In this document: positions 19,201 through 63,381 of the stretch, piece by piece
Layout of the letters: each line of letters starts with the position of its first letter
How positions within the stretch are numbered: the stretch's first letter is position 1
Source: a virus
Reading direction: 5' to 3' (one strand)
Virus record (IMG/VR): IMGVR_UViG_3300044617_002200
Coordinates: 1-64,000 of that record
Length of the DNA stretch: 64,000 bases
Notes under the pieces: generated by a model
The model's database searches: none
What the model was told of the DNA's origin: nothing
Seen by the model: the letters and a program-made list of their open reading frames with translations, nothing else
Made by a program: the position numbers and the translations under genes

Positions 19201-22200
19201 TGGAGAATATGGTTGTAAATTATTTTCAGATCCTGCTCTTTGAGACATTATTTGAGCTAAAGAAATAATAGATTTATCTATATTTTGAAGAACTCCAAAT
19301 TGCTGAGTCTGTATTTGAGTTTGAAGTGACGCTTGATTTACTAGCGGATCATCAGATATAGATAAACCGGATTTTATTGCTTCTGCAACTTGTAAATTTA
19401 TTTTTTCTATTTGACCGATAGAGTTTTTATAAATTTTACTGAAAATTGAGTTAAAAACAGAGCTATCTATTTGACCAGTAGCTTGTCCCATTTGTAAAGC
19501 GGCGATCTCTTTGGGATTGAATTGTTTTAAAGCATCAACAAAAGATCTATACTCTTGTCTAACATCATCTGGTAAAATAGCTCTTCCAGTATTCTGTCTA
19601 GAAATAGCATCATCCCGCAAGGCTTTTTCAAATTCTTTTATTTTATTTGAAATATCTTGAGTCAATCCCGCCATGGCTTTTTGGTAAGAATCAGATTGTG
19701 GATCTACCTCATATAGGCCTCCCGATAATGTTTGCAATGTCTTTATAAGAGATAAATAATTTCTTCCCAAATCAGGAATATCTGCAACTCTAGCATTTAC
19801 AGATTCTTTATTGTTATATCTAAAAGCACTTTTAGATTCTATGCCTTTGATTTCATTTACAAATGAATCTAAAGATTTTAAAGGGGTTATTTCATTACCA
19901 AATTCGTCTTTTTGAGGAGATAAAAAACTTTCAGCACCTCCAAAAATACCAGTCGCCGATTGAAGTGTTTTTAAAACTAAATTTTGAGTAGCTCTATCAG
20001 CTAAACTTTTGTTAGCAAGTTTTTCTTGTTGGTTAATGCTGATTAATTCATTATTTGTTTTTTCAGCCAATATTTCAATATTTGTTAAAATTGAGTTTAC
20101 ATTTTCTACACCAGCAGAAATCAAATAAGTTTTTAAACCTCTAAGTAAATTTTGAGTATCTATTTGTTCTCCTAAAGCTTTTCCAAGCAAAGTGTTAGAA
20201 TTTTTAAAACTTGATTCTAATTTCAAGTTCTGACTTTCTAACTGAAGACGGTTAGTACTAATTTGTTTGGGAGATAAATTTTCACCCGAAGCCTGGTCTA
20301 TTATTTTTTTTCTAACATCTTCAAAAGCAGACCCTAATAAAGTTGAGACTTGATTTTGAAAATCAAGATTTCTATTTTGAATAGAATTAATTCTATCATT
20401 GCTATTTTTTAATATATCTTCCGCAATCTGGTATTGAGTTGCAATTCTAGAACCCTCGCCAGTTATTTGAGAAGCAGCCTCTCTTTTATTAGAAAAATTC
20501 TGTTCAATTATTCTATTTTGACTAAATTGTTGTAAAGCTAATTTAGATTGTTCTATACTAGAAATATAAGCTTGTGTTATTTCAATATTTTTTCGAATAG
20601 AATCTTTTGTTTTTTCTAATAATTGATTTTCAAAAGCCCTGCTCTTAGATAAATTTCGAATAGAATCATCATAATTTTTTTGAGCTGTAATAGAATCTTC
20701 AAAAGATTTTTTAGAATTATCTAATCCAGCAGCAAAAGTTTTTACGATTACAGATAAAGAGTCGAAAGGTATTGTTGCTAATTCGTTTTTTAAACTTCTA
20801 ACTTCTTCTGTGTCTGGCAATCCAGAAGCAAAAGCTTCCGCGAAATCTTGCGATGAATTAATATTCGAACTAAATCCTTGCCCACCACCAACAGCGTTAA
20901 TCTTACCAAGACCAGACCTCTCATCTAATCCTTGAAAAAATATTGATTGCAATGTTTTATTTAATTTTTCTAATTCTTTAGAATCATTTTCTAATAATCC
21001 TGATCCGAATAAACCGCCACTCACATTTCTAATATTAGCGTTTGATCTCTCCTGCCCAAGTATTTTTCCTACATCCTGTAAATTAGAAGTAAATTCAGTT
21101 ACAACTTGTTTATTTTGAAGTATTTTAGCTATTTTTTCTCTAGCTTCAGATAAACTTTTGGAACTTAGAATTGATTTTTTTTCTTCTTCTGAAACACCAT
21201 TCAAAGATTCATTTAAAGCTTTTCTAGCTTTATTTACAGTATCTAAATCAGCGCCATCTTCAAGAAGTTTTTGGTAATTTTCAGATGCAGTTAAAAATTT
21301 AGAAGAACTGTCGGAAAAATTCTGAAGACTTTCTCTTGATTTTTCTGCTGCTGAAGAGAGTTCTGGAAAATTAGAATTTAATTCATCTAATAATGGGCCT
21401 AGCGATAATAAACCACCAGCCACACCGCCTACAGCGGCTCCGATAGGTCCTCCTACTAAAAATCCCGCTCCTGCAAAAGATGCGGTTTGCCCGAGAGCAC
21501 TTACAGCTGCACCAGTTCTTCTATCTTCTGGATTATTTCTACCTATAGAATTAGCAATTGTTTCAGCTATAATAGGAGCTGAAGTTAAACCTAATGCGCC
21601 ACCAGAAGACAAGCCAGCTTTAATTCCAGCTCCAGAAAAAATTCTTTTAAAAGTCCCTGCCACACCGGAAGACCCGGCTATTTTTTCTAACTTCCCTAAA
21701 GAAGTTTCTGATTTAGATATTTGAGCTTCAAGTTTTCTGAATTGTTTACTATTCTTATCTAGAGAGGATAACTCTTCTTTTCTTATCGAAATAGAAGACC
21801 TTATTTTGTCGATTTCAGAATTAAACTCAGAATTAAAACTTCTAAATCCAATCGAAAGTAAAGCTAACTGAGTTAAAACAGCACCTATAGATCCAAAATC
21901 AGCCTGCTCTGCAAAGTTAGGAATATATCCAGTAGACTTGCTTTTTACAGCTTTATTTTCTTTTGATTTAGTCCCCTCGTCTCTACTATTAAAAACGCCC
22001 AAACCAAAAGGGTTAGATTTTGATACTAAATCTTTATTATTAGCTACATAAATTTTATTATTTGGTAATCCTGACTCATTAGTCTCTCTAATTATAGCAT
22101 CTTTTAAGGCATTTGAAAAATTTGGAATAAAACCTTTAGAGCGCGACTTCATTTTTGGAACTCTAAAAATATTCTCTTTCAATCCTTTGCGTATAACATC

Positions 22201-24681
22201 AGGAGCTAAAGACTCGGAAATTTTTGCTTCATAGTCCCCAGGTGTATTATTAAATAATGACCTTAATTCTTGGTTTGGGTTAATAAAATCTATAACAGCA
22301 CTAGCCCCGCCCTCTCTAGATGATTGAGCCATAACGGAATTAGTTCCTTTTGTGACAGCTGTTTCAAATACAGTTCCAGCTATACTAGGAAGCGAACCAA
22401 GATTTGATAATTCCGAAACATCTTTAATTCTTGCTAGCGAAGATTTATTTCCAAAAAAACTTACATAGCGATTTGTATAATCAACAATATAATCGCCAAT
22501 TCCTCTAGCAAGATCCTGATCTTCTGGCTCGATAGCTTCTTTTGGATTAAATCCACTTGAATTAAAACGCGCTTTATATATTTGCCCTCTTGCCCCAAAT
22601 TGCCCGTCTTTATCTTTCCAAGAAGCCTCTATTTTCTTATAAGAATTCGTTTGTTTACCATAGATTAGACTTAATCTATCTGTAGAGCCCAAGTCGATTG
22701 GAGGCGAGGCAACTTTATTATCCTGAGTTTTACCAATTTGATATTTTAACTGACTTAATCTTTGTTTTTCTTGATCAGTGAGGGTTTTCTTTCTTTCTAA
22801 ATTATAAAGTTCAGTTTTTGGATTTACAGCAAAATTAGGTATATAACCCAAAGCCATTGAGAGTCCCTTTTGCATTTCGCGAGTAAGAATTGCCGTTTCT
22901 TTGCTTCCTCCAAAATTTTCTACAAGCCTCTCTCCTGTATTTATTACAGTTGGTTCTCCATTTATATTGAATGGGCCAATTGGTTTATCACTAGGCTTTG
23001 CGCCCCCAACTCTTTTCTGTATATCTTTTTGTTCTTTTTTAAAAGCAGGTATATAACCATCCGCCCTAGTTTTAGGAGTCGGTGCGTTAGGAATTCCCTC
23101 TGAAACTCTTACGCCTCTATTAAATAATTGAGAAGCAATTTTAGCCGTTAATATATCCTGTTTTTGTAATTCAGTTGTTTGTGCTCTTAAACTAGCCAAT
23201 AGTTGTTCAGTTGCCTTAGCTACACCCTGAGTACCTTGCTGCATTAACTGAAGCAACTGTGGATTTTGACTAAGAATACTCGTTATACTTTTTTGTAAAT
23301 CAGCTTGTTGTTTCGCAGCATTATTTAGACCCAGAAGTTCCTTAGAACTGCCTATTGCAAATTTAGAAAAATCCTTAAATAATTTAGCAAGAACACCTCC
23401 TATTAAAGCAATTCCTGGACCAGCTAATATTTTACCTATACCGTCTAAAATACCAGTACCTAGTTTAGCGCCGAATCCTTCACTATCTACATTGTTTAAA
23501 TTTTCTAATATCAAATTACCCCCGCCTACCACTCTTTCAAACGATGGTCCAATTACTCTTTCCCCTGCTGCAGCAGCTAATTGCACAGCATTCTCTCTTA
23601 AAGCATTCAATTGAGCTGCGTAGGTTTTATTTAATTCTTCATTTCTTCTTATAGCTTGATCAGTTGTCGATTCAGCAACTTTTAAAGCATTATTATATAT
23701 AGAAAATTCTTTACCTAAATCTGCAAGAGCAGACTTCAAAATATTTATTTGGAACACTCCGCCAACTTTTTCAGCAACTTCCGCCTGCTGAAGCGTACCT
23801 AACTTATCATAAACCGACCCTAAGTCTTGGAGTAATGCTATTGTTGATTTCAATTGACCTGTTCCATCTGTAGTCGAAATCCCCAATCCTTCTAAAAGGT
23901 CTACTACTTTTGTTCTTTGTAATCTTGTAAAAATAGTTTTAAAGGAGTTACCAATAACAGCTCCACCTCTAGCCGTAGTTTGTTGAGCGGCTGTAACAAT
24001 TGCGATTAATTCATTTAAACTAACTCCTGATTGAGCAGCGCTGCTACCTACACGGCTAATAGCGTCAGCTAAATCAGCTGAACTCACCGCGAAAGCTGCG
24101 TCAACATTTGCGAATTTATTGACTATTTCAGTTGCAGTTACGGCTTCTGAGGCGAAAGAATTTACTGCTGCTGTTAAAGCCTCGACGCTTTTAGCAGCAT
24201 CTAGACCGCTCAATCTAGACAATATTAAAGCTTCATTTGTTCTTTTTAAAGTTTCTGATATCCCTAAACCCTGTCTTGAAAATTCCGTAGCAGCTTTTGC
24301 TACAGCTTCAAAAGATTGACCCGTATTTTTAGCAATATTAAATAAATCTGCTCCAAATTTATTTAATTCAGTAGATGATGCATTTAAAATTACATTTATA
24401 TCTTGTAAAGATTTTTGAACTTCAATAGTAGATGAGACTAAAGATTGAAAAGCTTTCTCAATACCAAAAATAATACCCGCACTTGCGCCGAAGGCTATAA
24501 CTCTTGCGTTAGAAGCATCTAATGATTTGTTAAATTCATTAATTTTTCCAGTTATACGACCCAAAGGCTGCTCGCCTTTAGTTTTTAAGTCAATTTCAAA
24601 AACCTTATTAACGCTTTTTCGTATATCACGATCTAAGCGTTTTGTATTCCCACCAATATCTAAATCAATTGAAGCTGGCAT
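16294..24681 (-). CDS. Tail tape measure protein (TP901-type core) with internal cassettes
   Basis: 2795 aa; N-terminal core AKAATEFSRQG...AVSSADLADAISRVGS...GAVIGNSFKTIFTRL; follows tail tube and chaperones. Confidence 0.92.
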   Translation of the reverse strand: MPASIDLDIGGNTKRLDRDIRKSVNKVFEIDLKTKGEQPLGRITGKINEFNKSLDASNARVIAFGASAGIIFGIEKAFQSLVSSTIEVQKSLQDINVILNASSTELNKFGADLFNIAKNTGQSFEAVAKAATEFSRQGLGISETLKRTNEALILSRLSGLDAAKSVEALTAAVNSFASEAVTATEIVNKFANVDAAFAVSSADLADAISRVGSSAAQSGVSLNELIAIVTAAQQTTARGGAVIGNSFKTIFTRLQRTKVVDLLEGLGISTTDGTGQLKSTIALLQDLGSVYDKLGTLQQAEVAEKVGGVFQINILKSALADLGKEFSIYNNALKVAESTTDQAIRRNEELNKTYAAQLNALRENAVQLAAAAGERVIGPSFERVVGGGNLILENLNNVDSEGFGAKLGTGILDGIGKILAGPGIALIGGVLAKLFKDFSKFAIGSSKELLGLNNAAKQQADLQKSITSILSQNPQLLQLMQQGTQGVAKATEQLLASLRAQTTELQKQDILTAKIASQLFNRGVRVSEGIPNAPTPKTRADGYIPAFKKEQKDIQKRVGGAKPSDKPIGPFNINGEPTVINTGERLVENFGGSKETAILTREMQKGLSMALGYIPNFAVNPKTELYNLERKKTLTDQEKQRLSQLKYQIGKTQDNKVASPPIDLGSTDRLSLIYGKQTNSYKKIEASWKDKDGQFGARGQIYKARFNSSGFNPKEAIEPEDQDLARGIGDYIVDYTNRYVSFFGNKSSLARIKDVSELSNLGSLPSIAGTVFETAVTKGTNSVMAQSSREGGASAVIDFINPNQELRSLFNNTPGDYEAKISESLAPDVIRKGLKENIFRVPKMKSRSKGFIPNFSNALKDAIIRETNESGLPNNKIYVANNKDLVSKSNPFGLGVFNSRDEGTKSKENKAVKSKSTGYIPNFAEQADFGSIGAVLTQLALLSIGFRSFNSEFNSEIDKIRSSISIRKEELSSLDKNSKQFRKLEAQISKSETSLGKLEKIAGSSGVAGTFKRIFSGAGIKAGLSSGGALGLTSAPIIAETIANSIGRNNPEDRRTGAAVSALGQTASFAGAGFLVGGPIGAAVGGVAGGLLSLGPLLDELNSNFPELSSAAEKSRESLQNFSDSSSKFLTASENYQKLLEDGADLDTVNKARKALNESLNGVSEEEKKSILSSKSLSEAREKIAKILQNKQVVTEFTSNLQDVGKILGQERSNANIRNVSGGLFGSGLLENDSKELEKLNKTLQSIFFQGLDERSGLGKINAVGGGQGFSSNINSSQDFAEAFASGLPDTEEVRSLKNELATIPFDSLSVIVKTFAAGLDNSKKSFEDSITAQKNYDDSIRNLSKSRAFENQLLEKTKDSIRKNIEITQAYISSIEQSKLALQQFSQNRIIEQNFSNKREAASQITGEGSRIATQYQIAEDILKNSNDRINSIQNRNLDFQNQVSTLLGSAFEDVRKKIIDQASGENLSPKQISTNRLQLESQNLKLESSFKNSNTLLGKALGEQIDTQNLLRGLKTYLISAGVENVNSILTNIEILAEKTNNELISINQQEKLANKSLADRATQNLVLKTLQSATGIFGGAESFLSPQKDEFGNEITPLKSLDSFVNEIKGIESKSAFRYNNKESVNARVADIPDLGRNYLSLIKTLQTLSGGLYEVDPQSDSYQKAMAGLTQDISNKIKEFEKALRDDAISRQNTGRAILPDDVRQEYRSFVDALKQFNPKEIAALQMGQATGQIDSSVFNSIFSKIYKNSIGQIEKINLQVAEAIKSGLSISDDPLVNQASLQTQIQTQQFGVLQNIDKSIISLAQIMSQRAGSENNLQPYSPPKGPVKNKASGYIPAFKNETSAINKGIGGALPSDYPVFLNDLNGKPAMINSGEKLIKNFGGTRKTAVLTRDMQKAFNFAKGLIPNFARIPKDPGFEKTIRQLVESGTFNTLEDSAAFLEGIFEMDKQAGTNSTPAEIYKKAIQEAEGVSKVNKNLALEQSMDTKADKLKRMVDFGTPEEQAVARKKLAKINPEKIAPIDKPISQLESDSVKKGIADAEKPKPETKKVPTPKPEDPIKKAEREALEFLDRNKKNTTTPGKVGSRGRTGGISQKSQLYNWLKSKGYSDDLAKKTVEQAFQNKAASKATSKVVEEAAEATTKSAAKTAGKAGGKGLGKAILKKIPIIGIGAGIGFGISRAMEGDFAGAGLEVVSGVAGSFPGIGTGISAAIDTGLTVRDIASSTTENPESVVNNNAAMPAIITANQNQPAPASVIPTPASKPVSSAKNTVSQPSSSSDTKKTKPTIPENIYRIIENANRSEDAGKVGEARKQYELAKKQLEEYSGTQIPKEIADFSSTVLNEIKESQSRMKQKAVGEIDTKTSRPKSVVEGLYPSEQFSEDEMASFIRNIQDSLTEIKKSEFQDKSYSEARNKIKSLKQTLEKYGSEDSSYKLTPAGKRWLTEGLYATQVISDRVRQKSTGILDPDATNPLPKEEESKAPVLERKPSEKVASLLNTKSDTSSNADPVRSVIESTQKENAYSDETAKAEVLELNTAYEDAIKNAKTSEEKMALAKKLMEYKTMYSRQQYSKLRTVYNSHKKTDSYSKGFIPNFFEKNPLNDSIQREVASLVSMGASPSEALNSVRVGSSGLLKSATNPLGLGVFNKLQGQNSLSQAFRDHAGENLKMSGMNFEKRVPNFSNLDSGLNNIVSAFDSLSENNIPNNNISIMLESLNSAIEKLTGAASNFVPNFAAGMTSNVKADINAPVNLNITSAQQDPREVILSMLPEINDQIGNNVKRALGKKVPPSLARI

Positions 24682-36651: not shown

Positions 36652-39504
36652 TTAATTATCCAAATCGGTTATTACTAATTGATCATTAGAATTATAGTAG
36701 GATAAACGAGATTGGTTATTTGAATTTTTTAAAAATTTTACAGAATAAGACGAATAAACATGTGCATTCTGTGCAGCAAGATTCAAATTAGAACCAGAAA
36801 AAGAACCTTCATTATATCTAAAATTATCACCAATTACATTTTTTTCGAAATTGTTGAAAATATTATTTTCAAAAAAATTACCTATTAATAAGTTACTATT
36901 AAAGTTTTGCCCTATGTAATTTTTATAGAAAGAACCCTTTATTAAATTTCCCGAAAAAGAGTTTGATATTTCATTATTAAAACACTTAGAAATATTATTT
37001 GAATTAAATTGGTCACCTACTGCATTAGAATAAAATCCACTTCCTATAATATTTGAAGAAAACTCGTCTCCTATTTTATTTCTATAAAAATATCGAGCAT
37101 CAATAGTATTATTGCTAAAATCTGACCCTATTTCATTAGAATAACAATTAATGTTTTGACCGCTAGGAACATAAAAAACACTGTTTATTAATTTTTTAAT
37201 ATATATATCTTTAACACCTGTAGAATTTAAAATCCCCGTATTAGTAATTGAGTTTGAAAAAATCGGCTGTTGTATCAAAGCTCCTGTTAAAACTGGTAGT
37301 GTCAAAATATTTGTTGAGCCATTTGATTTTATATTAAAAAAGTCTAACTCGTCACTTGTAGCAAAATAACTATCTGCTTCAATAAAAGGAGTTAACTGCT
37401 GCCACCAATCAGAATTCTGATCTGGGCTTTTATTTATATTTGAATTTTTTAGAGAGATAAATAACTTACCAGCACTTGTTTTTACAACATCGTCTTTACT
37501 ATAATTATAGGATGTGCTGTATAAAACAACCGAGCTTAAATCTAATTTACCGCAATTTACGGTCAAATTTCTCCAATCACAAGATATATCAATACTATTT
37601 TTAGTGTCTATTCTTCTATAAATCCAACCCTTAAAATCATTTATTTCTGTATTATTATTGCTCTCCCAAGTATAACTGGTTTTAGCTTCGTCATCATAAT
37701 ATATAATATCTTCTGGATATATTGTTGAAAAAGCATTTTTGGCGATGGAATTTTTGGTTAAAGCCATAACAACCAAAGGTTCAAAGTATTTCCCACTTTT
37801 TACTGTTTTATCTGTACTACTTTTGTTCCACCATTTAGAAATAAAATCGGTTATCTCATAATAAGAACCTTCTGTTAAAAGGTTGTTGTTTTTTAAATTT
37901 TTGAACCCACTAAAAGTTAATTTATTATAATTTTGATAATTCTCTGATTCTATTACTTGTTGGTTTGAATAATTTTTAAGCCTCCACTCCGGAGAAATAA
38001 ATACAAACTCCGCAAAATCGCCTATTTTAGGATTTTGTATATTATACAATGTTAAATTCTCGGAAAAAGAGTTTCCAGTTAAATATTTAAATCTAAAACT
38101 TAAAGAGTCTGGATTCTGAATATTTAAAGAAACATTGTAATATAATATATCTCCATTTTGAGCGTTTTGACCAGAAACATCTGGTAAATCAATTATACAT
38201 GCTCCTGTCGTATCAAAAAGACAATCAATATATAAATTTCTAGATGCAGGCGTTTTCGAAATTAAAAAATCATCAACAAACCATGCGCTGTTAACTTTAT
38301 CATAGCCAGTCAAATAATTTAGAGTTTCTTCTAATAAGAAGATATCCCCCATTTCATGCGGGTGTTCTGATTTAGCGTATTGTAGAAACGGAATAGACTC
38401 TAATGTCCAAAAATTCGAATTTTTATTCTTAAATTCTATAAAATAATCTCTATTAGAAATCTCTGAATATATATTATATAAAGAATAATAGTCAGGCCCC
38501 TCTAATAAATTTTGCCCGTTAAAAGATATTTTGTATTCATAACCAGATTTAATTTTATTAATTAAAACTGGATCTACATATGACAATTTAAATTTTATAT
38601 TATTTCCAGATTCAGATAAGTTCAAATCCGGTAAGTTTATATTAAAATCCCCAGTTTGGTAAATATAAATATCGTATTCAGTATTATTTTTATTCGTTAA
38701 AAAAATATTTCTATTTCCACTCAAAAAAATACTTTCAAAGTTTATTTTATTTGAAAAGGCACTATTTGAACCCCAATTTATTTTTTTTAGCGCTCTTTTC
38801 TCATAAAGGGGATGAATGATAGGATAAACAAGATTAGGAATTAAAGGCCCATCATATTCTATCATCACATAAGATTCAAAATCTGAATTTAAATCTTGTT
38901 GATTTTGTTTTGATATATTAACGATATTTCCAGTTCTTATCCCTAAAGGTAAATCAACCGATTCAGTAAATGGTACTCCAAATAAATTATATATTCCAAA
39001 AGAAGTATGTCCGTTAATCGTATCAATATAAGAATTTCCCTCTAAAATTATATTAGAGTCTTTATCAAAAACTACGTCTACTCCAGAAAAATAAACTCCA
39101 GAAGTAAAAAAAGATTTTGACCCAGAAATAAAATTTTGAAGACCAACAATATCCCCTTCCAACAAGATTTTTTTACCGCTTATATATATTGCTTTATCAA
39201 ATATTTTTTCTCCAGAAATTATTTGATCACCAGTTGTATAAACTACATTTTCTAAATTTATAATCCCGGTGCCAGAAATGATATTATTAGTGATATCGCC
39301 TTCAAGTAAAACTCTTTTGTTATCAACTATAGGTCTGTTCGAAAAAGTTTTTTGACCTTGTATATTTTGATTTCCAGTAGTATATACAACATCTTTAATT
39401 AAACTATCAACTTGCCCAAAAGATGGGAAAAGTAATTGTCCATATTCATAAACTGCTCCGCTAATATCAGCGTCAATTTGTCTTCTTTTAATTAAACTTC
39501 TCAT
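36652..39504 (-). CDS. Fibre/spike protein with VYTTGxQ shaft repeats and C-terminal NxIGxxF beta-helix-like repeats
   Basis: VVYTTGNQNIQGQKTF and VVYTTGDQIISGEKIF; C-terminal half homologous to 58482..61052 (FKGWIYRR.DTK..IDI..DWR; RLSY.N..DQLV.TD). Confidence 0.7.
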   Translation of the reverse strand: MRSLIKRRQIDADISGAVYEYGQLLFPSFGQVDSLIKDVVYTTGNQNIQGQKTFSNRPIVDNKRVLLEGDITNNIISGTGIINLENVVYTTGDQIISGEKIFDKAIYISGKKILLEGDIVGLQNFISGSKSFFTSGVYFSGVDVVFDKDSNIILEGNSYIDTINGHTSFGIYNLFGVPFTESVDLPLGIRTGNIVNISKQNQQDLNSDFESYVMIEYDGPLIPNLVYPIIHPLYEKRALKKINWGSNSAFSNKINFESIFLSGNRNIFLTNKNNTEYDIYIYQTGDFNINLPDLNLSESGNNIKFKLSYVDPVLINKIKSGYEYKISFNGQNLLEGPDYYSLYNIYSEISNRDYFIEFKNKNSNFWTLESIPFLQYAKSEHPHEMGDIFLLEETLNYLTGYDKVNSAWFVDDFLISKTPASRNLYIDCLFDTTGACIIDLPDVSGQNAQNGDILYYNVSLNIQNPDSLSFRFKYLTGNSFSENLTLYNIQNPKIGDFAEFVFISPEWRLKNYSNQQVIESENYQNYNKLTFSGFKNLKNNNLLTEGSYYEITDFISKWWNKSSTDKTVKSGKYFEPLVVMALTKNSIAKNAFSTIYPEDIIYYDDEAKTSYTWESNNNTEINDFKGWIYRRIDTKNSIDISCDWRNLTVNCGKLDLSSVVLYSTSYNYSKDDVVKTSAGKLFISLKNSNINKSPDQNSDWWQQLTPFIEADSYFATSDELDFFNIKSNGSTNILTLPVLTGALIQQPIFSNSITNTGILNSTGVKDIYIKKLINSVFYVPSGQNINCYSNEIGSDFSNNTIDARYFYRNKIGDEFSSNIIGSGFYSNAVGDQFNSNNISKCFNNEISNSFSGNLIKGSFYKNYIGQNFNSNLLIGNFFENNIFNNFEKNVIGDNFRYNEGSFSGSNLNLAAQNAHVYSSYSVKFLKNSNNQSRLSYYNSNDQLVITDLDN

Positions 39505-55404: not shown

Positions 55405-58206
55405 TTATAATGCCAACGCCATCGCGGTTGATATATTTGTTATATTGTTTGTTATATATGTTACACTTTCTACATTTTTATTTGTCCATAAATTGTTTTC
55501 AAAAACTAAAATCTGGCCAGATTGAGGATTAACAATTTTTACATCATGAAGTTCATCTATTTCATACCCATTTTGCACTTTAACGTACATAATGCCATTA
55601 TTACCATTACTTGGTCTTTCTACTACACCAAGAAATACAGCATGTTGCGGAGCTTGTGGTTTTGTTTTTGTAAGAGTACCATCTCCAGAACCTAACCAAA
55701 CCATATCGCCAGTATCAAATCCGGTTAATATACTTAAATTTTGCAGTTGTCCGTTAGTAAGAATATATCCATCAGCGCCACTAGCGATAGATTGTGCAGC
55801 CAAACCGAAAGTTCTTGCTGATGTTCCTTCACTGAGATTATTTGCTTTTTTAACTGTTGCTCTATCACCTTGCGCACCAGCAATATAAACAGTTTCTCCT
55901 TTAGTTAAATTTGCTCCGTTGTTTCTTACATAAGCAACCGTAGAAAAACCAAGAGGCACGCGAACATCACTATTCGGTAGTGAACTAGTTAGCACTCCAG
56001 TTATATCTTGGTCTCCTGATTTAGAAAGAGCATTGATATCATTTGGAGTAATATTTATATTAGCTTGTTTTACTAATGAATTAAAAGTATAACCTCCTAA
56101 AACTGAAACCCAGCCAGTAGCTAAATCCGGGGTCGCGACATCGCTAGAGGATCTAAAGAATAGAGTCTGAAAAGAACTGAGGCCTATTTCCCATCTAGAA
56201 GATGTAGAGTTCCACCCAATTTGGGTTGTGTTTGATAATCCATCTTTTGAATATAAAGGTCTTCCATTTCTAGTTCCTATTATTTTATAAATACCAGCAC
56301 CAGAGGACCAACTAATATTTAAAATTAAATTATCAGTATAATAATTCGAACCAATTGAAACAGCGTTAATGTCTTTAGGGTATATTGGATCGTTTCCACC
56401 AACAAAATGAGAATCTGCATGTCTTGTTACGGGTTCAATTAACCATTGATTTTCAAATCTTTCTCCGTAAATAAATCTAGCAGATTGATTAAAATAAAGC
56501 GTAGTAAGCAAACCTTGCTCAACATCGTACGCTGCGAAAGTAGGATATACGCGTAGTTCTCTATACAAATCATTGCTAAAATCAGAAGTCAAAGTGACCT
56601 CTACAAAAGAACCTTTTTCTAAATTTGTTTCTGGTAAAACTAAAAAAGAATGCCCTTCAACATTCATGAAGATATTAGCATAAGTATCTTTATTTTGAAT
56701 TTGAAAGACATCTCCGCTACCGAGGTTCGCTCCAGTATAAACGGGAGATAAAGCCACTCTATTATTACCAACAATTATTCTATTATTAAAAGTTTTTATT
56801 CCATTAATAGTTTGATTTCCAGTTATATAAACTAAATCTTGAGAATTTATTTCTGCAGGATTGATTTGAAAATAACTAGATCCGCCCCATCTATATGTTT
56901 TTGCGTCTCCGGTTGTTACATAAATTTTGCCAGCTTCTCCAGAAACCCCAGTAAGAGTGCTATAGTTTGGATATTCTATAACATCATCTACATAACTAGG
57001 TAATTGGCTAGAAGGAATTTTCCCATTTATTAATGATGCTGCATTAGAATCTCTAACAGGTACCTCTTTCTTCCATCGTAAATCTGATCCATTATATAAT
57101 AATCTATAAACTCTGCTTTCGTATTGATTTGTAAAATCATAATAATCCCAATTGTCTACAGTAGTACTATTATAATTTCTTATGTTAAAAGAAACCATAC
57201 CATTTATTTGAGTTCTTATTTCAATTCTATCTCCAAATCTAGCAGTACCACCTGAAAGTATATCTCTAGGCAATGCAATAACAGCTGATGCAAAGGCAAG
57301 CGATGCTGGACTATGATTAACTTCAACAATAGCATTTCTTCCAATATCTGGGCCATTAAAATTTTGGAGTGTAGATGTCAAGGATACTTCTTCATTAGGA
57401 GAAGTTAAGATAGCTGTTTTGTAATATACAGGTAAAGATTCAGATTCCCCAACAAGAGCTATCCCAGTATTATTAACTGTAGGTCTATTTAAAAAATTCC
57501 AATTATCATATAAGGTATGATTACCACTTTGTCTTAATTCAAAAACCGAGGGTTCACCAGGTGCATTTAAACGCTTTATAGTTAAATTTTGATCATAATT
57601 AGCCGAAGGATCTTGTATAACACCCCATAATCTTTTAAAACCACTAGAATCACCGCTAGCGCCGAAATCGATTCCAATTCTATTATGAGCGCCAGACGGA
57701 GAATAAAGTCTTAATGCTGTATCGTTTTTTATACAATTAATATTTCCATCTTTATCAATATAAAATGGAGTCGTGTCTGGATTATTAGAATCTTCAACCA
57801 GAAATACATGACCATTTCCGGTTGTTCTCTGCGTTAACCTTAATACAGGATCCGCAGACTCATTTTCAAATATAACAGAACCACCAGATACATGAAGCTT
57901 TGCTTTTGGATCTGATGTATTTACGCCAACATTTCCATTATCAGAAACAAAAAACGATATATTGCCCGTACCTATTTGTAAAGGATCTAGAAATGTTTTT
58001 ACCCCGCTAATGTTTTGATTACCCGTAGTATAAACGATTGTATTAGGTAATTGAATACCATTAGTAGAAGAAACCTCCCCGATTAATAAAACTCCAGTGC
58101 CATTTACTCTGGGTCTACTGGCGAAATCTTTAATCCCACTTATATTAGACTGGTCACCAGTTGTCGAAACAACTTGGTCTATATGGGCATGTATTTTTGT
58201 TGGCAT
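55405..58206 (-). CDS. Mosaic tail fibre protein
   Basis: V[YS].TG[ND]Q..I.G.K.F repeats, GNVGVNTSDP..KLHV, GKIPSSQLPSYVDDV, QNGYEIDELHDV. Confidence 0.8.
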   Translation of the reverse strand: MPTKIHAHIDQVVSTTGDQSNISGIKDFASRPRVNGTGVLLIGEVSSTNGIQLPNTIVYTTGNQNISGVKTFLDPLQIGTGNISFFVSDNGNVGVNTSDPKAKLHVSGGSVIFENESADPVLRLTQRTTGNGHVFLVEDSNNPDTTPFYIDKDGNINCIKNDTALRLYSPSGAHNRIGIDFGASGDSSGFKRLWGVIQDPSANYDQNLTIKRLNAPGEPSVFELRQSGNHTLYDNWNFLNRPTVNNTGIALVGESESLPVYYKTAILTSPNEEVSLTSTLQNFNGPDIGRNAIVEVNHSPASLAFASAVIALPRDILSGGTARFGDRIEIRTQINGMVSFNIRNYNSTTVDNWDYYDFTNQYESRVYRLLYNGSDLRWKKEVPVRDSNAASLINGKIPSSQLPSYVDDVIEYPNYSTLTGVSGEAGKIYVTTGDAKTYRWGGSSYFQINPAEINSQDLVYITGNQTINGIKTFNNRIIVGNNRVALSPVYTGANLGSGDVFQIQNKDTYANIFMNVEGHSFLVLPETNLEKGSFVEVTLTSDFSNDLYRELRVYPTFAAYDVEQGLLTTLYFNQSARFIYGERFENQWLIEPVTRHADSHFVGGNDPIYPKDINAVSIGSNYYTDNLILNISWSSGAGIYKIIGTRNGRPLYSKDGLSNTTQIGWNSTSSRWEIGLSSFQTLFFRSSSDVATPDLATGWVSVLGGYTFNSLVKQANINITPNDINALSKSGDQDITGVLTSSLPNSDVRVPLGFSTVAYVRNNGANLTKGETVYIAGAQGDRATVKKANNLSEGTSARTFGLAAQSIASGADGYILTNGQLQNLSILTGFDTGDMVWLGSGDGTLTKTKPQAPQHAVFLGVVERPSNGNNGIMYVKVQNGYEIDELHDVKIVNPQSGQILVFENNLWTNKNVESVTYITNNITNISTAMALAL

Positions 58207-58215
58207 AAAATGATA

Positions 58216-58476
58216 TTACACTATATTTATTTTATTTTCCCATGTTAAACGATTAGACTCTATTTGATTATCTAATTCACTTTCTTCTTCTATCCAATTT
58301 AACCTTTCACAAAATAAAAGATAATCATCTATCTTTTCAATTTCTTTTTGTTCTGGTTTATTGGATTCCTTGTTAAATTCGAATTCTTTGATTTTAAAAA
58401 CATGATCTTTTTCCCAGTAATTAACTCTTACTGTGTTGTCTATATATGCGTCTTTTGTAACAAAAACATTTTTCAT
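58216..58476 (-). CDS. Small fibre-associated protein
   Basis: 86-aa ORF; its final GTG-TAA doubles as the GTGTAA motif for the next gene. Confidence 0.65.
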   Translation of the reverse strand: MKNVFVTKDAYIDNTVRVNYWEKDHVFKIKEFEFNKESNKPEQKEIEKIDDYLLFCERLNWIEEESELDNQIESNRLTWENKINIV

Positions 58477-58481
58477 AAATT

Positions 58482-61052
58482 TTAAGCTGTTGGATCTGTT
58501 ACTACCAATTGATCAGTTGTGTTAAAGTAACTTAAACGAACCGTGTTATTAGAATTTGAGAAGATTCTAGTATTATAATTGTTATATACGTGAGTTGCTC
58601 CTGTAACATCACCTATACTATTATTATTTTCTATAGTATTTCTTCTAAAATTGTTTCCAACGGCGTTGTTGGTGAAGCTGCTTCCAACGGCGTTGTCGGT
58701 GAAGCTGCTTCCAATGGTGTTGGAGTTGAAGTAGTTTCCAATGGTGTTGTAGCTGAAGTTGTTTTCAACGGTGTTGTAGCTGAAGTTGTTTTCAATGGTG
58801 TTGGTGTAAAAGGACTCGTTTCCAATGGTGTTGGAGTTGAAGTAGTTTCCAATGGTGTTGGAGTAGAATAAGTTTCCAATGGTGTTGGAGTTGAAGTTGT
58901 TTCCAATGGTGTTGTAGTAGAAGCTGCTTCCAATGGTGTTGGATTGGAAGTCGACTCCAATGGTGTTGCGGTTGAAGTTGTTTCCGATGGTGTTGGAGAT
59001 GAAGTTGTTTCCAATGGTGTTATGTAAGAAGTAGTTTCCAACAGCGTTATTGGTGAAGTCTTTTCCAATATTATTATAATTAAAATCACTTCCTATTTTG
59101 TTTTCTAAAAAGAAAATATCTACAGAATTAAATATAAAAGGCCCGCTAGTGGTATTAAAATAAAAATTAGCGACTATATTATTACCGTAAAAACTGTTAC
59201 TGATAATATTAGAATAAAAAGCTTCTCCGATTGTATTGGTGGTAAAACCATTACCGATAACATTAGTATCAAAGCGATTACCAATCGAGTTTACCTGAAA
59301 ACCTTCTCCGATTGTATTGGAGTGAAAACCTTCTCCGATTGTATTGGAATAAAAATTATTACCAATAATAACATTTTGAAAACCGTTTTGTATTTTTATA
59401 TTATTGACGTTTTCGATATTTAATTGACTTTCTTGATCTAAAGATGTTACAAAAGTAGGTTGTTGAATTCTTGTTTGATACAAAGGAGGTAATGAAACTG
59501 ATATATTATTATTTGTTTTAAACGCAAGCTCACCGTCTTCCGTTATGTAAGTTGCAAAATAAGTTTGAGATTCATTAAACGGAGAAACCGGCAACCAGAA
59601 ATTAGTGTTTGTTAAATTATTATTTGTATTTGAATTAACCACAGAATAATAAAGCTTACCACTAACATCTTTTACGACATTATGTAAATTATATGTAGTA
59701 CCAGAATTGTATAAATTAACCGATGACATATCTGGACGGCAGCAGTTATTAGTTATATATCTCCAGTCCCAACCGATATCAATATTTTTCTTTGTATCAT
59801 TTCTTCTATAAATCCAACCCTTAAAATTGGGTATTGGTGTATTGATATTTCTTGTGCCCCAAGTATTTGAACTTGTTGCATCTATATCATAATACACAAT
59901 ATCTTCTGGGTGGAGTGTAGATTTCGCTTCAGTATGAATTCCACTCGCATTAACAGCTGTGACAACCAGTGGTTCTATTGCGCTACCAGTTAAAACAACA
60001 GTATTGTTTACAGATTGGTTCCACCATCTTAATTGGAAGTCATTGATAATGTAATTTTGCCCACTCTTTAATAGACCGCTATTTTTTAAATTTTTTAAAT
60101 CATTATAAGGTAATGAAATTGCAGATTGAATAGAAGAAATATCTACACCAGTTATAAATCCGCTAGGATTTGAAGCTGGGTATGCACCGATTTCTTGAGG
60201 AGTATGGAGGTGATTACCAGAAGCGACCGTGCCTGCAGTATCGCCTTTTCTTATAAATCTATCTTCAATAAAAGCACCCAGTGGAGTGTTTAAAAGAATT
60301 GGTATACCTCCACCAACATTAATAGGGAAAGTATTTAAAATTTCAGGACCTAGAGATTGAAAAAACGCATACCCCTCAAAAAAACCGCCATCCTCATTGT
60401 AAATGTTTGTTTGTATTCGAGGAATATCTTTAATTTTTAAATTATTTAAAGTATTATTATTCCCAGTTATTATTGAATGAGTTCTGATATAATTACTATT
60501 AAAACCAACTTTAGAAGGCGTTGGAGGAGAACCGCTAACAAAAAAACAACTTATATATGTCCCACTAGCAGGAACAATTGGGCTATTTGAAGCTGAAACC
60601 TCAAAATCTAAAGCAAATGTAGATCCTGGTAAAACAACTGCTGAACCGAGAGACTCAAAATTAAGAACATCTCCGGCTTCCCATCCTGTTCTGGGTATTT
60701 TTATTTTTGTGTTTCCGTTAGGAATACTTGACAAAATATACTTAGCGTATCTTTTAGGCTGTATTAAAAATTCATTATTTAAAAAATTGCTAGAATTTAT
60801 CTCGATATATTCATATTCGTGAGAATGTAATTTTTTAGCAGCACCAATATTCTCAGGATTAATTGGGTCTGTTCCACTTAAACTATGGACATAAGCATGA
60901 GAAGGTAAACTCCCAGAAGGTAAAACGCCGCTAATATCATTTAGCTTTAAATCAACATTTCCATTAATAGGTAATTTTCCGTTTACCGATAGTAATGCAG
61001 AATCAGGAACTGATGAATTTTCTATTGTCGAAATACCTATTTGATTAATCAT
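58482..61052 (-). CDS. Fibre/spike (receptor-binding) protein with 9-aa NTIGNxFxx repeats
   Basis: LSVNG, HxH motifs, GAYPASNPSGFITG; long C-terminal repeat array. Confidence 0.8.
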   Translation of the reverse strand: MINQIGISTIENSSVPDSALLSVNGKLPINGNVDLKLNDISGVLPSGSLPSHAYVHSLSGTDPINPENIGAAKKLHSHEYEYIEINSSNFLNNEFLIQPKRYAKYILSSIPNGNTKIKIPRTGWEAGDVLNFESLGSAVVLPGSTFALDFEVSASNSPIVPASGTYISCFFVSGSPPTPSKVGFNSNYIRTHSIITGNNNTLNNLKIKDIPRIQTNIYNEDGGFFEGYAFFQSLGPEILNTFPINVGGGIPILLNTPLGAFIEDRFIRKGDTAGTVASGNHLHTPQEIGAYPASNPSGFITGVDISSIQSAISLPYNDLKNLKNSGLLKSGQNYIINDFQLRWWNQSVNNTVVLTGSAIEPLVVTAVNASGIHTEAKSTLHPEDIVYYDIDATSSNTWGTRNINTPIPNFKGWIYRRNDTKKNIDIGWDWRYITNNCCRPDMSSVNLYNSGTTYNLHNVVKDVSGKLYYSVVNSNTNNNLTNTNFWLPVSPFNESQTYFATYITEDGELAFKTNNNISVSLPPLYQTRIQQPTFVTSLDQESQLNIENVNNIKIQNGFQNVIIGNNFYSNTIGEGFHSNTIGEGFQVNSIGNRFDTNVIGNGFTTNTIGEAFYSNIISNSFYGNNIVANFYFNTTSGPFIFNSVDIFFLENKIGSDFNYNNIGKDFTNNAVGNYFLHNTIGNNFISNTIGNNFNRNTIGVDFQSNTIGSSFYYNTIGNNFNSNTIGNLFYSNTIGNYFNSNTIGNESFYTNTIENNFSYNTVENNFSYNTIGNYFNSNTIGSSFTDNAVGSSFTNNAVGNNFRRNTIENNNSIGDVTGATHVYNNYNTRIFSNSNNTVRLSYFNTTDQLVVTDPTA
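58650..59070 (-). repeat. 27-bp coding tandem repeat, consensus AAC ACC ATT GGA AAC AAC TTC AAC TCC (~15 units)
   Basis: Read directly; C-ending codons unlike the rest of the window. Confidence 0.95.
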
Positions 61053-61392: not shown

Positions 61393-62280
61393 TTAATATT
61401 TAATATTATATTTTTGTATGTAAGTATTAATAGTAGACATAAATTTATACTTGTCACACACAAGGTGGCACATACCTGTACCAGTTATCGTATAGGGCAT
61501 TGTATAATGATTAATATTTTTTTCATTTTCATCTACTAGACTGTCCTCTGAATTAAAAGACGGAAGTAAAACAATTTTTTCTCCAATTTTTAAAGGTCTT
61601 TCGCACATTAATCTATAACATACCTGCTCTAAGCTAACTGGAAAATACGCAGTAAATGTTTTGTGGGAATCGACTATTCTCTGAAATTTATTACTTTCAA
61701 AAAAGAATTTATTTTGTTTTACATAATTCAAGATTATATTTGCATTATTTTTTAATACATTTAAATATTCTGGACAACTAGTTCCGAATACTCCGAAATT
61801 TCTCGATATAAAAATATCTTTTTCCATATTCATATTCGGTAAAAATCCTGTATTTTCGAACATATCTTGAACGAAATTTTTCATCACCTTATGTTTTACC
61901 CAAGGCTCATCGTTCAAAGTAAAAAATTTAGAATTTTCTACTTTTTTAAAGATTTCTTTGTGAAATAAAAAAAAGTCAAAATCTACATGAACAAAGGGTC
62001 TTTCATGGTTTTTTATAGCAATAAATTTTCCGCCACTCCAAAATGGGATAGGAATTAAAGATAAATCTGATAATGACATTATGCGGACTTCATCATAAGG
62101 AATATTTTTAAAAATATGAGAACTTAATTCATCCACATACAAAATAGTTTTATACCCCTGTCTTCTCATTAAAAAGTTACTAAACGCGGCTAATTTTTTT
62201 TGTGTTTCTAATTCTTCTTGTTGATTAAAATCCCACCTATCTTTTCTATCTACTGTCCACCAGCTATAAATTGCGTCCAT
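61393..62280 (-). CDS. GT-A-like nucleotide-sugar transferase (DUF6734-like)
   Basis: FW..GK......PFVHVDFDFFL, NFGVFG, LEQ. Confidence 0.6.
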   Translation of the reverse strand: MDAIYSWWTVDRKDRWDFNQQEELETQKKLAAFSNFLMRRQGYKTILYVDELSSHIFKNIPYDEVRIMSLSDLSLIPIPFWSGGKFIAIKNHERPFVHVDFDFFLFHKEIFKKVENSKFFTLNDEPWVKHKVMKNFVQDMFENTGFLPNMNMEKDIFISRNFGVFGTSCPEYLNVLKNNANIILNYVKQNKFFFESNKFQRIVDSHKTFTAYFPVSLEQVCYRLMCERPLKIGEKIVLLPSFNSEDSLVDENEKNINHYTMPYTITGTGMCHLVCDKYKFMSTINTYIQKYNIKY

Positions 62281-62283
62281 ATA

Positions 62284-63381
62284 TTATATTACAAATTCAA
62301 AAGTTAAAGATTTATGTAAAATTTCTCCATAATTAACGAATTCTTTTTTACAAAAATCTAATTTTTCGGGCCACTTTGGTTTTGGGCTGTCAATAACCCT
62401 GCCATCTGGATGCACATAGTATATATGCAATTTATATTTATTTTTATTTTTTAAAATTAATTTTAAGTCTTTAAAGGTGACTGTTACCGCCGTTGGTATT
62501 TTTGGACAGTCTTCAAAATTCAATTTAATATGGTTGTCTATAGGTATTATATTTTTTTCAGAATCTTCTATTAAGAATTTAAAAACGCGATATTTATCTA
62601 CATCTAAAATCATGTTGGGATGAATTTGGATTTCTATTTTGGAAAAATCGCATAAATACTTGATTAATTCATGATCAACTATATTAAATAAATAAGAAAT
62701 ATTTGGCGCGTTTATATATTTTCGCAACGATACGGGTTTGTCACCGCTTGCTTTTAATTCCGGATTTAAAAGATAACTATTTAGACTTGGATTAAAGCCA
62801 CCAATAGTATTATTGTCTATAGTATCTTTTAACGGTAAAAGAGTATTTATTATATGATCTATTTTTCGCCCATTAACAAAATATGTATACGTTCCCCAAG
62901 CATCGCCCTTTTGAAGAGTGTCTTTTGTTATTTTTTTTAAATTCGGCTGAACTTCTTCGTCCAAAAATTCGTAACACTTTTTACACCAAGTAAACATATG
63001 TAAAAAATCATAATCGGGAGGAAAAGATGGTATTAAATTTAAAAAGTTAGGGTGCAAGATACAATCATCCTCTATGACTAAGACATCTTCTTGTAAGTTA
63101 AGTCTTTTAATTTCATGTAATATTTTTAAATGACTCAACGCACATCCAAGAGTCCCCTTTAATTGTATCAATCCGTTGTCAAACCATTTTGGTCCTAGCC
63201 ATTTATTATAATCCATAGTAAAGTCTTCGCCATGAATCCCTAATATATGTAAATTTTCAACCTTATCAACTAAATTGGCTCGCTTTATTTCTTTGAATAA
63301 ATCCTTTAAACGTTTTTTGTAAGAATTTTTCCAAAAGACATTGACAGTACTAAAATATGGAGATACTATAAATATATGCAC
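62284..63381 (-). CDS. Glycosyltransferase family 25-like
   Basis: GTLGCALSHLKIL, VLVIEDD, WGTYTY. Confidence 0.8.
   Translation of the reverse strand: MHIFIVSPYFSTVNVFWKNSYKKRLKDLFKEIKRANLVDKVENLHILGIHGEDFTMDYNKWLGPKWFDNGLIQLKGTLGCALSHLKILHEIKRLNLQEDVLVIEDDCILHPNFLNLIPSFPPDYDFLHMFTWCKKCYEFLDEEVQPNLKKITKDTLQKGDAWGTYTYFVNGRKIDHIINTLLPLKDTIDNNTIGGFNPSLNSYLLNPELKASGDKPVSLRKYINAPNISYLFNIVDHELIKYLCDFSKIEIQIHPNMILDVDKYRVFKFLIEDSEKNIIPIDNHIKLNFEDCPKIPTAVTVTFKDLKLILKNKNKYKLHIYYVHPDGRVIDSPKPKWPEKLDFCKKEFVNYGEILHKSLTFEFVI

Follow-up and report, generated by a model that had tools for sequence, protein, structure and literature searches.

A C-ending nonapeptide repeat block in the tail-fibre gene of a lake phage: codon pattern, probable history and resemblance to a retroelement target

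Record IMGVR_UViG_3300044617_002200 of IMG/VR derives from an uncultured phage sampled from lake and freshwater metagenomes; it is linear, 83,405 bases long and about 55% complete according to the CheckV estimate, and its first 64,000 nucleotides, here called the window, are the stretch of DNA that was analysed. The window encodes a tail-fibre or receptor-binding protein, P0001, whose C-terminal part contains a block of near-identical 27-nucleotide units in which almost all variable codons end in C, in a genome where such codons are uncommon. The initial annotation proposed that this block is the variable region (VR) of a diversity-generating retroelement (DGR), or else a recently imported and expanded block, and the locus thus raises the question of which process can produce such a pattern. 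The evidence presented here indicates that the block is likely a young tandem array, grown from a founder unit with C-ending codons and carrying hypervariable surface positions, which was probably imported by recombination and changes by point substitution and by gain or loss of units. Conversely, no reverse transcriptase, template repeat or 3' element of a DGR was found in the available DNA, the predicted fold is not that of a DGR target, and the assignment to that class is not supported.

Codon anatomy and predicted fold of the array

The gene was recognised from its open reading frame (ORF) translation and its fibre-like neighbours, and about 28 nonapeptides of the form x1-x2-N-T-I-G-N-x8-F occupy the C-terminal third of the protein (residues 559-811 in the unit table). 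Its parts, in window coordinates, are as follows.

58482..61052, minus strand: gene of the tail-fibre or receptor-binding protein P0001, 856 residues
59403..60116, minus strand: conserved, beta-rich central domain, residues 313-550, with the motifs FKGWIYRR, DWR, NCCRP and RIQQPTF invariant in alignment columns
59082..59378, minus strand: eleven older nonapeptide units, residues 559-657, with A/T-ending codons (AAT, TTT, GGT) and divergent DNA
59055..59081, minus strand: transitional unit NYNNIGKDF (AAT TAT AAT AAT ATT GGA AAA GAC TTC), bounding the C-ending block on its upstream side
58647..59054, minus strand: 15 C-ending units, residues 667-802, with the frame AAC ACC ATT GGA AAC nnn TTC; x1, x2 and x8 are variable, N7 partly so
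58812..58814, minus strand: extra codon TCC (Ser747), which makes the unit at residues 739-748 ten residues long
58485..58646, minus strand: cap unit RRNTIENNN and conserved 45-residue C-terminal tail (SIGDVTGATHVYN...RLSYFN..DQLVVTDPTA), in A/T-ending codons

Tandem Repeats Finder places the block at 58651-59068, with a period of 27, 15.4 copies and 79% matches; together with the unit table, this bears out the roughly 15 units in a 27-nt frame that had been reported at first. Among the framework codons of the 15 units, N3 is AAC in all 15, F9 is TTC and G6 is GGA in 13 each, T4 is ACC in 12 and I5 is ATT in 10. The variable codons (x1, x2, N7 and x8) end in C in 53 of 60 cases, in line with the initial observation that they nearly always do so. 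The exceptions are TTA (twice), CAA, CAT, GAG and AAT (twice), to which the extra codon TCC is added; the list first given was therefore right for TTA, CAT, CAA and the extra codon, lacked GAG and the two AAT, and was wrong for GAA, which is a framework change from Gly to Glu present in two units. The framework codons deviate 13 times: seven changes are A-to-G at codon position 1 (ACC to GCC or GCT, ATT to GTT), two are GGA to GAA and four are synonymous. The A-to-G changes from ACC to GCC and from ATT to GTT co-occur in three 'NAV' units and are conservative (Thr to Ala, Ile to Val); Ala occurs at T4 in 5% of the units of the whole family. Measured against the unit consensus, the variable codons deviate 18, 23 and 7 times at positions 1, 2 and 3 (60 sites each) and the framework codons 7, 2 and 4 times (75 sites each), which means that 48 of the 61 deviations are confined to four of the nine codons.

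The C-ending style is foreign to the rest of the record, as had been claimed, since about 20% of the corresponding codons end in C elsewhere. Outside the focal gene, AAC represents 364 of 1832 Asn codons of the two forms (0.199) and TTC 216 of 1220 Phe codons (0.177), while the C-ending share is 0.17 for Tyr and 0.108 for TCC versus TCT; in the ORFs located before 66 kb, the focal gene aside, the C-ending share of pyrimidine-ending codons never exceeds 0.29. The block has a GC content of 0.40-0.435, with a plus-strand GC skew of up to +0.5. Both the eleven upstream units and the array of the paralogous gene at 36652..39504 use AAT and TTT, a point of the initial annotation that the unit table and the N3 counts (one AAC and eight AAT in the paralogue) confirm.

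AlphaFold2 predicts a regular beta-solenoid for the array, in two models with mean predicted local distance difference test (pLDDT) values of 73.5 and 72.5. The model of residues 545-856 shows the strand pattern EEE--EE-- with a period of 9: x8-F9-x1 form a three-residue strand, T4-I5 a two-residue strand, and x2-N3 and G6-N7 are turns. Confidence is low in the irregular units at residues 639-654 and in the ten-residue unit, where pLDDT drops below 50 at model residues 202-209, corresponding to residues 746-753 of the protein; over most of the central domain, which is 43% identical in the paralogue, it reaches 70-92. In the model, Phe and Ile would point inward to the core; x8 and x1 would point outward on the same sheet, because both flank Phe on one strand and residues alternate along a beta-strand; together with the adjoining x2, these two would build a single elongated variable face. 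Other faces would hold the conserved Thr and Asn, possibly at a subunit interface.

The top structural matches are also beta-solenoids, namely 3p4g (Z 18.2, root-mean-square deviation 3.4, 249 of 301 residues) and the Pam1 tailspike 7eea (Z 17.0, VIA-align), and phage tailspikes are found among the matches with Z of 15-17, although Z scores of this size may indicate, for repeat proteins, only a common arrangement. Foldseek against the PDB returned no match at E <= 0.001, phmmer against PDB sequences none at E <= 1, and neither the protein nor the module matched any Pfam or PHROG family. The most probable role of P0001 is that of a receptor-binding fibre, with a solenoid face that would touch a polymer of the host surface.

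Probable founder unit, import and turnover of the block

The prevalence of C at the third position can be considered together with the composition of the family to which P0001 belongs. At least 926 homologues of its residues 320-856 are present in metagenomes, of which P0015, P0021 and P0025 are encoded on contigs of 155-202 kb. Long NTIGNxF arrays are found in each of the eleven that were examined and of the 119 included in a unit scan. In the 1,636 units of these 119 homologues, Lys, Glu, Gln, Met and Trp account for only 15.8% of the residues at x1, 4.6% at x2, 4.1% at N7 and 3.4% at x8; the variable positions favour Asn, Ser, Tyr, Thr, Asp, Gly and Phe in arrays of any codon style. Since the five rare residues are those that have no pyrimidine-ending (NNY) codon, NNY variable codons are expected without any DGR. 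The array of L004 has a frame of its own, AAC ACT ATT GGC AAC nnT TTy, in which T is retained as the third base at x8 and x2, and C at x1, so that inheritance of the third base is a general feature. In the block of the window, a third-position C is thus probably explained by the legacy of a founder unit, combined with the family-wide preference for residues with NNY codons, and not by adenine mutagenesis.

When metagenomes were scanned for a pair of consecutive C-type frames, the contigs L020 and L021 were recovered, both encoding orthologues of P0001 with the same frame AAC ACC ATT GGA AAC nnn TTC; in viral contigs the exact C-type frame had no match besides the window's own record, to which that search was possibly blind. 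The array of L021 is C-type throughout and contains about 21-22 such units, compared with 15 in the window. When residues identical between the window and L021 are considered, the share encoded by the same codon is 0.44-0.53 before the array, 11/38 in the eleven A/T-type units and 21/42 in the tail (78% identical at the amino-acid level), and rises to 76/86 in the C-type block. The second possibility offered by the initial annotation, that of a recently imported and expanded block, is thus favoured by a frame shared with L020 and L021 and by a share of common codons that in the flanks is only about 0.5. The two arrays also present colinear oddities, consisting of a Ser at or beside the Phe position, then Y.NTIEN.F, then SYNTV...; in the L021 orthologue, Ser replaces Phe in the unit that corresponds to the ten-residue unit of the window.

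Differences between these arrays are concentrated in the variable codons and involve all three codon positions. When the window is compared with L021, differences affect positions 1, 2 and 3 of the variable codons in 24-26, 26-28 and 18-21 of 56 comparisons, and the framework codons in 2-8 of 70; between L020 and L021, the corresponding values are 15, 16 and 12 of 40, and 1-3 of 50. Amino-acid differences between L020 and L021 affect 25 of 40 variable codons and five of 50 framework codons, with tails that are 87% identical, and the x8 codons of L021 include GAA, GGA and GTA. The x1 codons of L020 are all TAT or GAT (NAT), while in L021 and in the window they are mostly TAC; a T at this third position along the whole array indicates that one synonymous change has spread through all the units, which is a mark of concerted evolution. 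Within the block of the window, adjacent units are more similar than random pairs (5.36 versus 6.43 differences per 27 nt; 41 of 10,000 permutations, p = 0.0041), and an exact repeat of 41 nt recurs at a distance of 111 nt.

A possible course of events can be proposed from these comparisons. A founder unit that had C-ending codons by chance would have been amplified by slippage or unequal crossing-over, in a process of concerted evolution; the C-type unit would have arisen and spread in a lineage similar to L020 and L021, and the gene of the window would have taken a stretch of the C-type array by recombination inside the array. Later, the arrays may have diverged by point substitution at the outward codons and by gain and loss of units, with the scaffold codons remaining fixed, and diversifying selection for binding to the host surface would drive the divergence of the outward codons. 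Import from an L020/L021-like lineage by recombination inside the array is considered probable, although the sequence comparison on which it is based is suggestive only.

The stability of the block was considered in four lake metagenome runs, X1, X2 (2024), X3 (2016) and X4, in a comparison made at the level of contigs, which conceal rare variants. Contigs of X2, X3 and, partly, X4, which belong to three further studies, distinct from the possible source, tile the block without any differing letter, and in X1 the depth of the block contigs (21.7-25.9) is comparable to that of the flanks (21.9).

Several points weigh against the reading proposed here. The case for import derives from about six effectively independent framework synonymous sites, because the units within an array are not independent of each other, and the resulting rough p of 0.016 is suggestive only. 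The three phages have in common none of the 15-nt variable cassettes (12, 20 and 8 distinct cassettes). Diversifying selection is deduced solely from the contrast between variable and framework codons, and the outward orientation of the variable residues is read from the DSSP string of the model and not from its coordinates. Furthermore, short contigs with two to seven other letters at 58701-58897 occur in X1 and X3, and one variant contig of X3 has a depth of 8.57, compared with 2.5-5.1 for the version of the window. A related C-type array, a copy-number variant and a variant allele would each look alike in these contigs. Finally, the array is spanned by no single contig of the four runs, the pieces breaking at 58720-58860; since no contig spans it and the exact repeat of 41 nt is longer than the word size of 31 letters, the order and the number of the units lack independent confirmation.

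Two further candidates were considered and rejected. The shuffling of cassettes between phages as a source of variety was discarded, as no 15-nt cassette is shared. Similarly, the variant contigs are not second placements of the window's own units, as the mismatch counts do not fit (5 versus 3, 4 versus 2 and 8 versus 7), a result that also counts among the points against the proposed reading.

Alternative explanations

The first alternative is that C-ending codons are maintained in their own right, for example because selection favours codons by which the structural Asn and Phe are decoded accurately or fast, and are not a legacy of founder or import. This appears unlikely as the main cause, although codon-level selection may contribute too. 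In the three phages, five of the six framework codons share their dominant form, compared with a same-codon share of about 0.5 in the flanks, and the sixth, T4 (ACC), varies only within arrays, being GCC or GCT in three units of the window and ACT in L021. Moreover, AAC at N3 exceeds the background of the gene itself in six of nine other arrays, and a codon-level preference along the Asn ladder, separate from the C-type block, is possible. The AAC/AAT counts at N3 and outside the array are, respectively, 13/0 and 4/27 in L004, 11/4 and 9/82 in L006, 5/7 and 5/28 in L009, 5/14 and 7/104 in L011, 8/4 and 10/45 in L012, and 5/9 and 20/175 in L014. However, ATT and GGA remain A/T-ending in all three C-type arrays, AAT and TTT are used in the eleven upstream units and in the arrays of L013, L015 and the paralogue, and the variable codons, which are not conserved, end in C as well. 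No tRNA gene is present in the window, and the higher accuracy of AAC over AAT is a supposition.

Strictly vertical descent of an old C-ending array from the common ancestor of the window, L020 and L021, with the identity of the framework codons arising by chance, would agree with the colinear odd features of the window and L021. This explanation is improbable: the dominant codon is the same at all of the roughly six synonymous sites of the framework, in spite of a flank rate of about 0.5 (p ~0.016), the codon style changes sharply at both edges of the block, and the array of L021 is wholly C-type while that of the window keeps eleven A/T-type units.

According to the DGR explanation, the block would be a variable region copied with errors from a template repeat by a reverse transcriptase (RT) whose gene lies in the host or in a portion of the genome missing from the record. 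This explanation is very unlikely, and the corresponding proposal of the initial annotation is not supported. In its favour are the 53 NNC codons among the 60 variable ones, the presence of variant contigs within the array and a record of which only about 55% is available. The consensus A sites also deviate more often than the others (42 of 180 versus 19 of 225; 7 of 75 versus 6 of 150 for the framework alone); this excess follows from AAC being the commonest form of the variable codons. Conversely, none of the 30 adenines in the AAC codons at N3 has changed across the 15 units, which is hard to reconcile with adenine mutagenesis along a whole template over 405 nt. The adenine proxies for a template-to-VR relationship are opposed, the enrichment at A sites within the block being set against the differences at third positions between phages (18-21 of 56 and 12 of 40, as given above), to which GAA, GGA and GTA at x8 in L021 are added. 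In contigs of three other studies the block is identical (in X4 for the part covered), and its depth in X1 does not depart from that of the flanks.

The components of a DGR were also searched for. Neither RVT_1 nor RVT_N matched anything at E <= 10 in the record of 83,405 bases, about 55% complete, so that the lack of an RT first noted for the window extends to the whole record, which reaches 58 kb on one side of the fibre gene and 22 kb on the other; according to an excerpt of PMC5758913, nearly every phage DGR has its target no more than 50 kb away from the RT. Similarly, RVT_1 was found in none of five other fragments that bear the module (25-65% complete), and in none of five relatives identified through the large terminase (85% identity), which include two complete genomes with terminal repeats, of 178 and 166 kb. 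The fibre module had no match at E <= 0.001 in G006, G007 and G010, in a search where the positive controls G000 and G002 matched, and none in G008 and G009, in a search made without a positive control; since the relatives tested with controls do not carry the module, the absence of an RT in them is informative for the phage backbone only. The BLAST check suggested at first, for a copy differing only at adenines, returned from the record only the block itself and two chance matches of 15-17 nt, and no ungapped 60-nt window outside the array of the gene reaches 39 of 60 identical positions on either strand of the 83.4 kb. At its 3' end, a DGR variable region typically has a GC-rich initiation of mutagenic homology (IMH) element and a hairpin; in the 280 nt downstream of the block the richest 14-mer has 8 of 14 G+C, and the inverted repeats are merely of 9-10 nt, with 89-90% complementarity. 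Concerning the fold, DGR variable regions are systematically found in C-type lectin folds, as stated in an extract of PMC8144416, and an Ig-like fold had been suggested earlier (in extracts of PMC8144416 and PMC5758913), while the array is predicted to be a beta-solenoid.

A broader version of the same idea, namely site-directed hypermutation, either by a DGR acting in trans from the unsampled 45% or so of the genome or from the host, or by an RT-independent rewriting of 15-nt cassettes between 12-nt anchors, is likewise highly improbable; if it were true, such a process would have generated the variant contigs seen within the array.

Lastly, an artefact of short-read metagenome assembly, with collapsed or mis-joined repeats determining the number and order of the units, would be in keeping with the breaks at 58720-58860, the missing spanning contig, the 41-nt exact repeat and the statement, in an excerpt of PMC12222747, that assemblies of Illumina reads failed to reconstruct fungal arrays with highly similar units, but it is hardly credible in view of the overlapping contigs of X2, X3 and partly X4 without other letters, the reading frame unbroken through all the units and the array of the same style in the L021 orthologue.

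Genomic setting and comparison with known systems

The fibre gene is encoded on a virus contig together with genes for a tape measure protein, a large terminase and an endolysin, and both its neighbour and its paralogue carry BppL_N; the window also encodes PhoH and Hsp20, and contains three fibre-like genes, including the focal one. The main genes of this context are listed below.

16294-24681, minus strand: tape measure protein, 2,795 residues, with a peptidase or endolysin-like domain at about residues 2065-2226
36652..39504, minus strand: paralogous fibre gene P0002, 950 residues, with an N-terminal BppL_N motif, a C-terminal module shared with P0001 and an array in A/T-ending codons
41468-43369: large terminase
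55405-58206, minus strand: third fibre-like gene, 933 residues, directly downstream of the focal gene, with BppL_N at residues 56-73

P0002 and P0001 share 43% identity over 383 residues (BLASTP, E 2e-66); since the paralogue array is A/T-ending, one phage carries two fibres of one family with differing array styles. The third fibre-like gene has a weak match to a PHROG 'peptidase' at residues 386-473, and an ORF of 86 residues without family match (58216-58476) lies between it and the focal gene. Directly upstream of the latter, at 61393-63381 on the minus strand and inside the structural module, are genes for a DUF6734 protein and a family 25 glycosyltransferase of the lipopolysaccharide-biosynthesis type. 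Past about 67 kb, the C-ending share of pyrimidine-ending codons in the ORFs of the record (67-83 kb) is 0.25-0.52, compared with 0.08-0.29 in the structural genes, a jump that represents a sharp compositional change between genome modules.

Contigs of X1, X2 and X3 match only 59451-59825 and, beyond either end of it, continue in unlike letters that agree between the runs; in all three runs a joint from 59473 to 59802 is also seen (shorter side 23 letters). The contigs limited to 59451-59825 most likely derive from a co-occurring related fibre gene that has the central domain in common. The complete genomes G006 and G007, reached via L039 and L072, have terminal repeats, lengths of 178 and 166 kb and a large terminase 85% identical, and do not contain the fibre module, which is therefore swapped among otherwise close phages.

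A search of viral contigs with P0001 alone found nothing, and an alignment-based search recovered 16 loci. A literature search returned no paper with the motif NTIGNNF, and the matches to NTIGN that it listed were chance strings within other words; among the papers listed in searches on tandem-repeat DGR targets and on nonapeptide phage solenoids, none was seen to describe this fibre family. The analysis thus points to a large and unannotated family of fibre modules in lake phages, with at least 926 homologues and no Pfam, PHROG or PDB sequence match. It also removes a false DGR lead and gives a reason for the likeness: a young array whose exposed positions favour Asn, Ser, Tyr, Thr and Asp can, with no RT involved, display NNC or NNT changes set in a frame rich in AAC, and codon patterns alone are therefore no ground for calling DGR targets.

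Compared with known systems, the block resembles the DGR variable regions of the BPP-1 Mtd type in its C-terminal position within a phage receptor-binding protein, in its richness in AAC and in the variation of surface codons on a constant scaffold. It differs from them in that no RT, template or IMH-like element was found in the searches described above, in its solenoid fold, in its 405 nt of tandem units, in the intact adenines of the scaffold and in the variation of third codon positions between phages. The fibre belongs to the beta-solenoid kind of receptor-binding protein that is common in phages, but its strict nonapeptide repeat is named in no library. Parallel beta-helix tailspikes, such as those of Pam1 (7eea) and CBA120 (TSP3, 5w6f), are likewise receptor-binding proteins built on a beta-solenoid (Z 16-17); however, they have irregular coils of about 22 residues or more and often a catalytic groove, while the array has a strict 9-residue repeat and no Pfam or PHROG match. 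The antifreeze protein of Marinomonas primoryensis (region IV, 3p4g) is similar as a regular short-period solenoid with flat faces, with a sequence identity of 10%. RTX nonapeptides, which form a calcium-binding beta-roll, have the consensus GGxGxDxUx; its GGxGxD part is not found in the xxNTIGNxF units, which also have no Pfam match.

As for the mode of evolution, the closest analogy appears to be with repeats of high internal conservation (HIC), followed by those of transcription activator-like (TAL) effectors. TAL effector repeats are near-identical DNA units apart from adjacent specificity codons, but they are helical, 34 residues long and read DNA bases, and a code of one ligand for each unit belongs to none of the results reported here. 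In the WD40 repeats of fungal NOD-like receptors (NLR), units 80-100% identical are maintained by concerted evolution through unequal crossing-over, with four hypervariable codons under diversifying selection, as described in a portion of PMC12222747. The HIC repeats of the WD40 proteins het-d and het-e resemble the fibre array in having near-identical DNA units, few hypervariable codons on a predicted binding surface and a varying number of units, and an identical mechanism, unequal crossing-over with concerted evolution and diversifying selection, is proposed for both; they differ from it in belonging to a eukaryotic immune receptor with a propeller of units of about 42 residues, in place of a phage structural gene with a solenoid of 9-residue units. 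Several of the features by which such repeats are recognised are present in the fibre array, with unit matches of 79%, variation concentrated in a few codons, similarity between neighbours, array-wide spread of a synonymous change and differences in unit number. The surface of the nonapeptide solenoid thus appears to evolve like that of fungal NLR or TAL repeats; if this is true, changes of host range in abundant freshwater phages would be readable, and perhaps predictable, from the ladder of surface residues.

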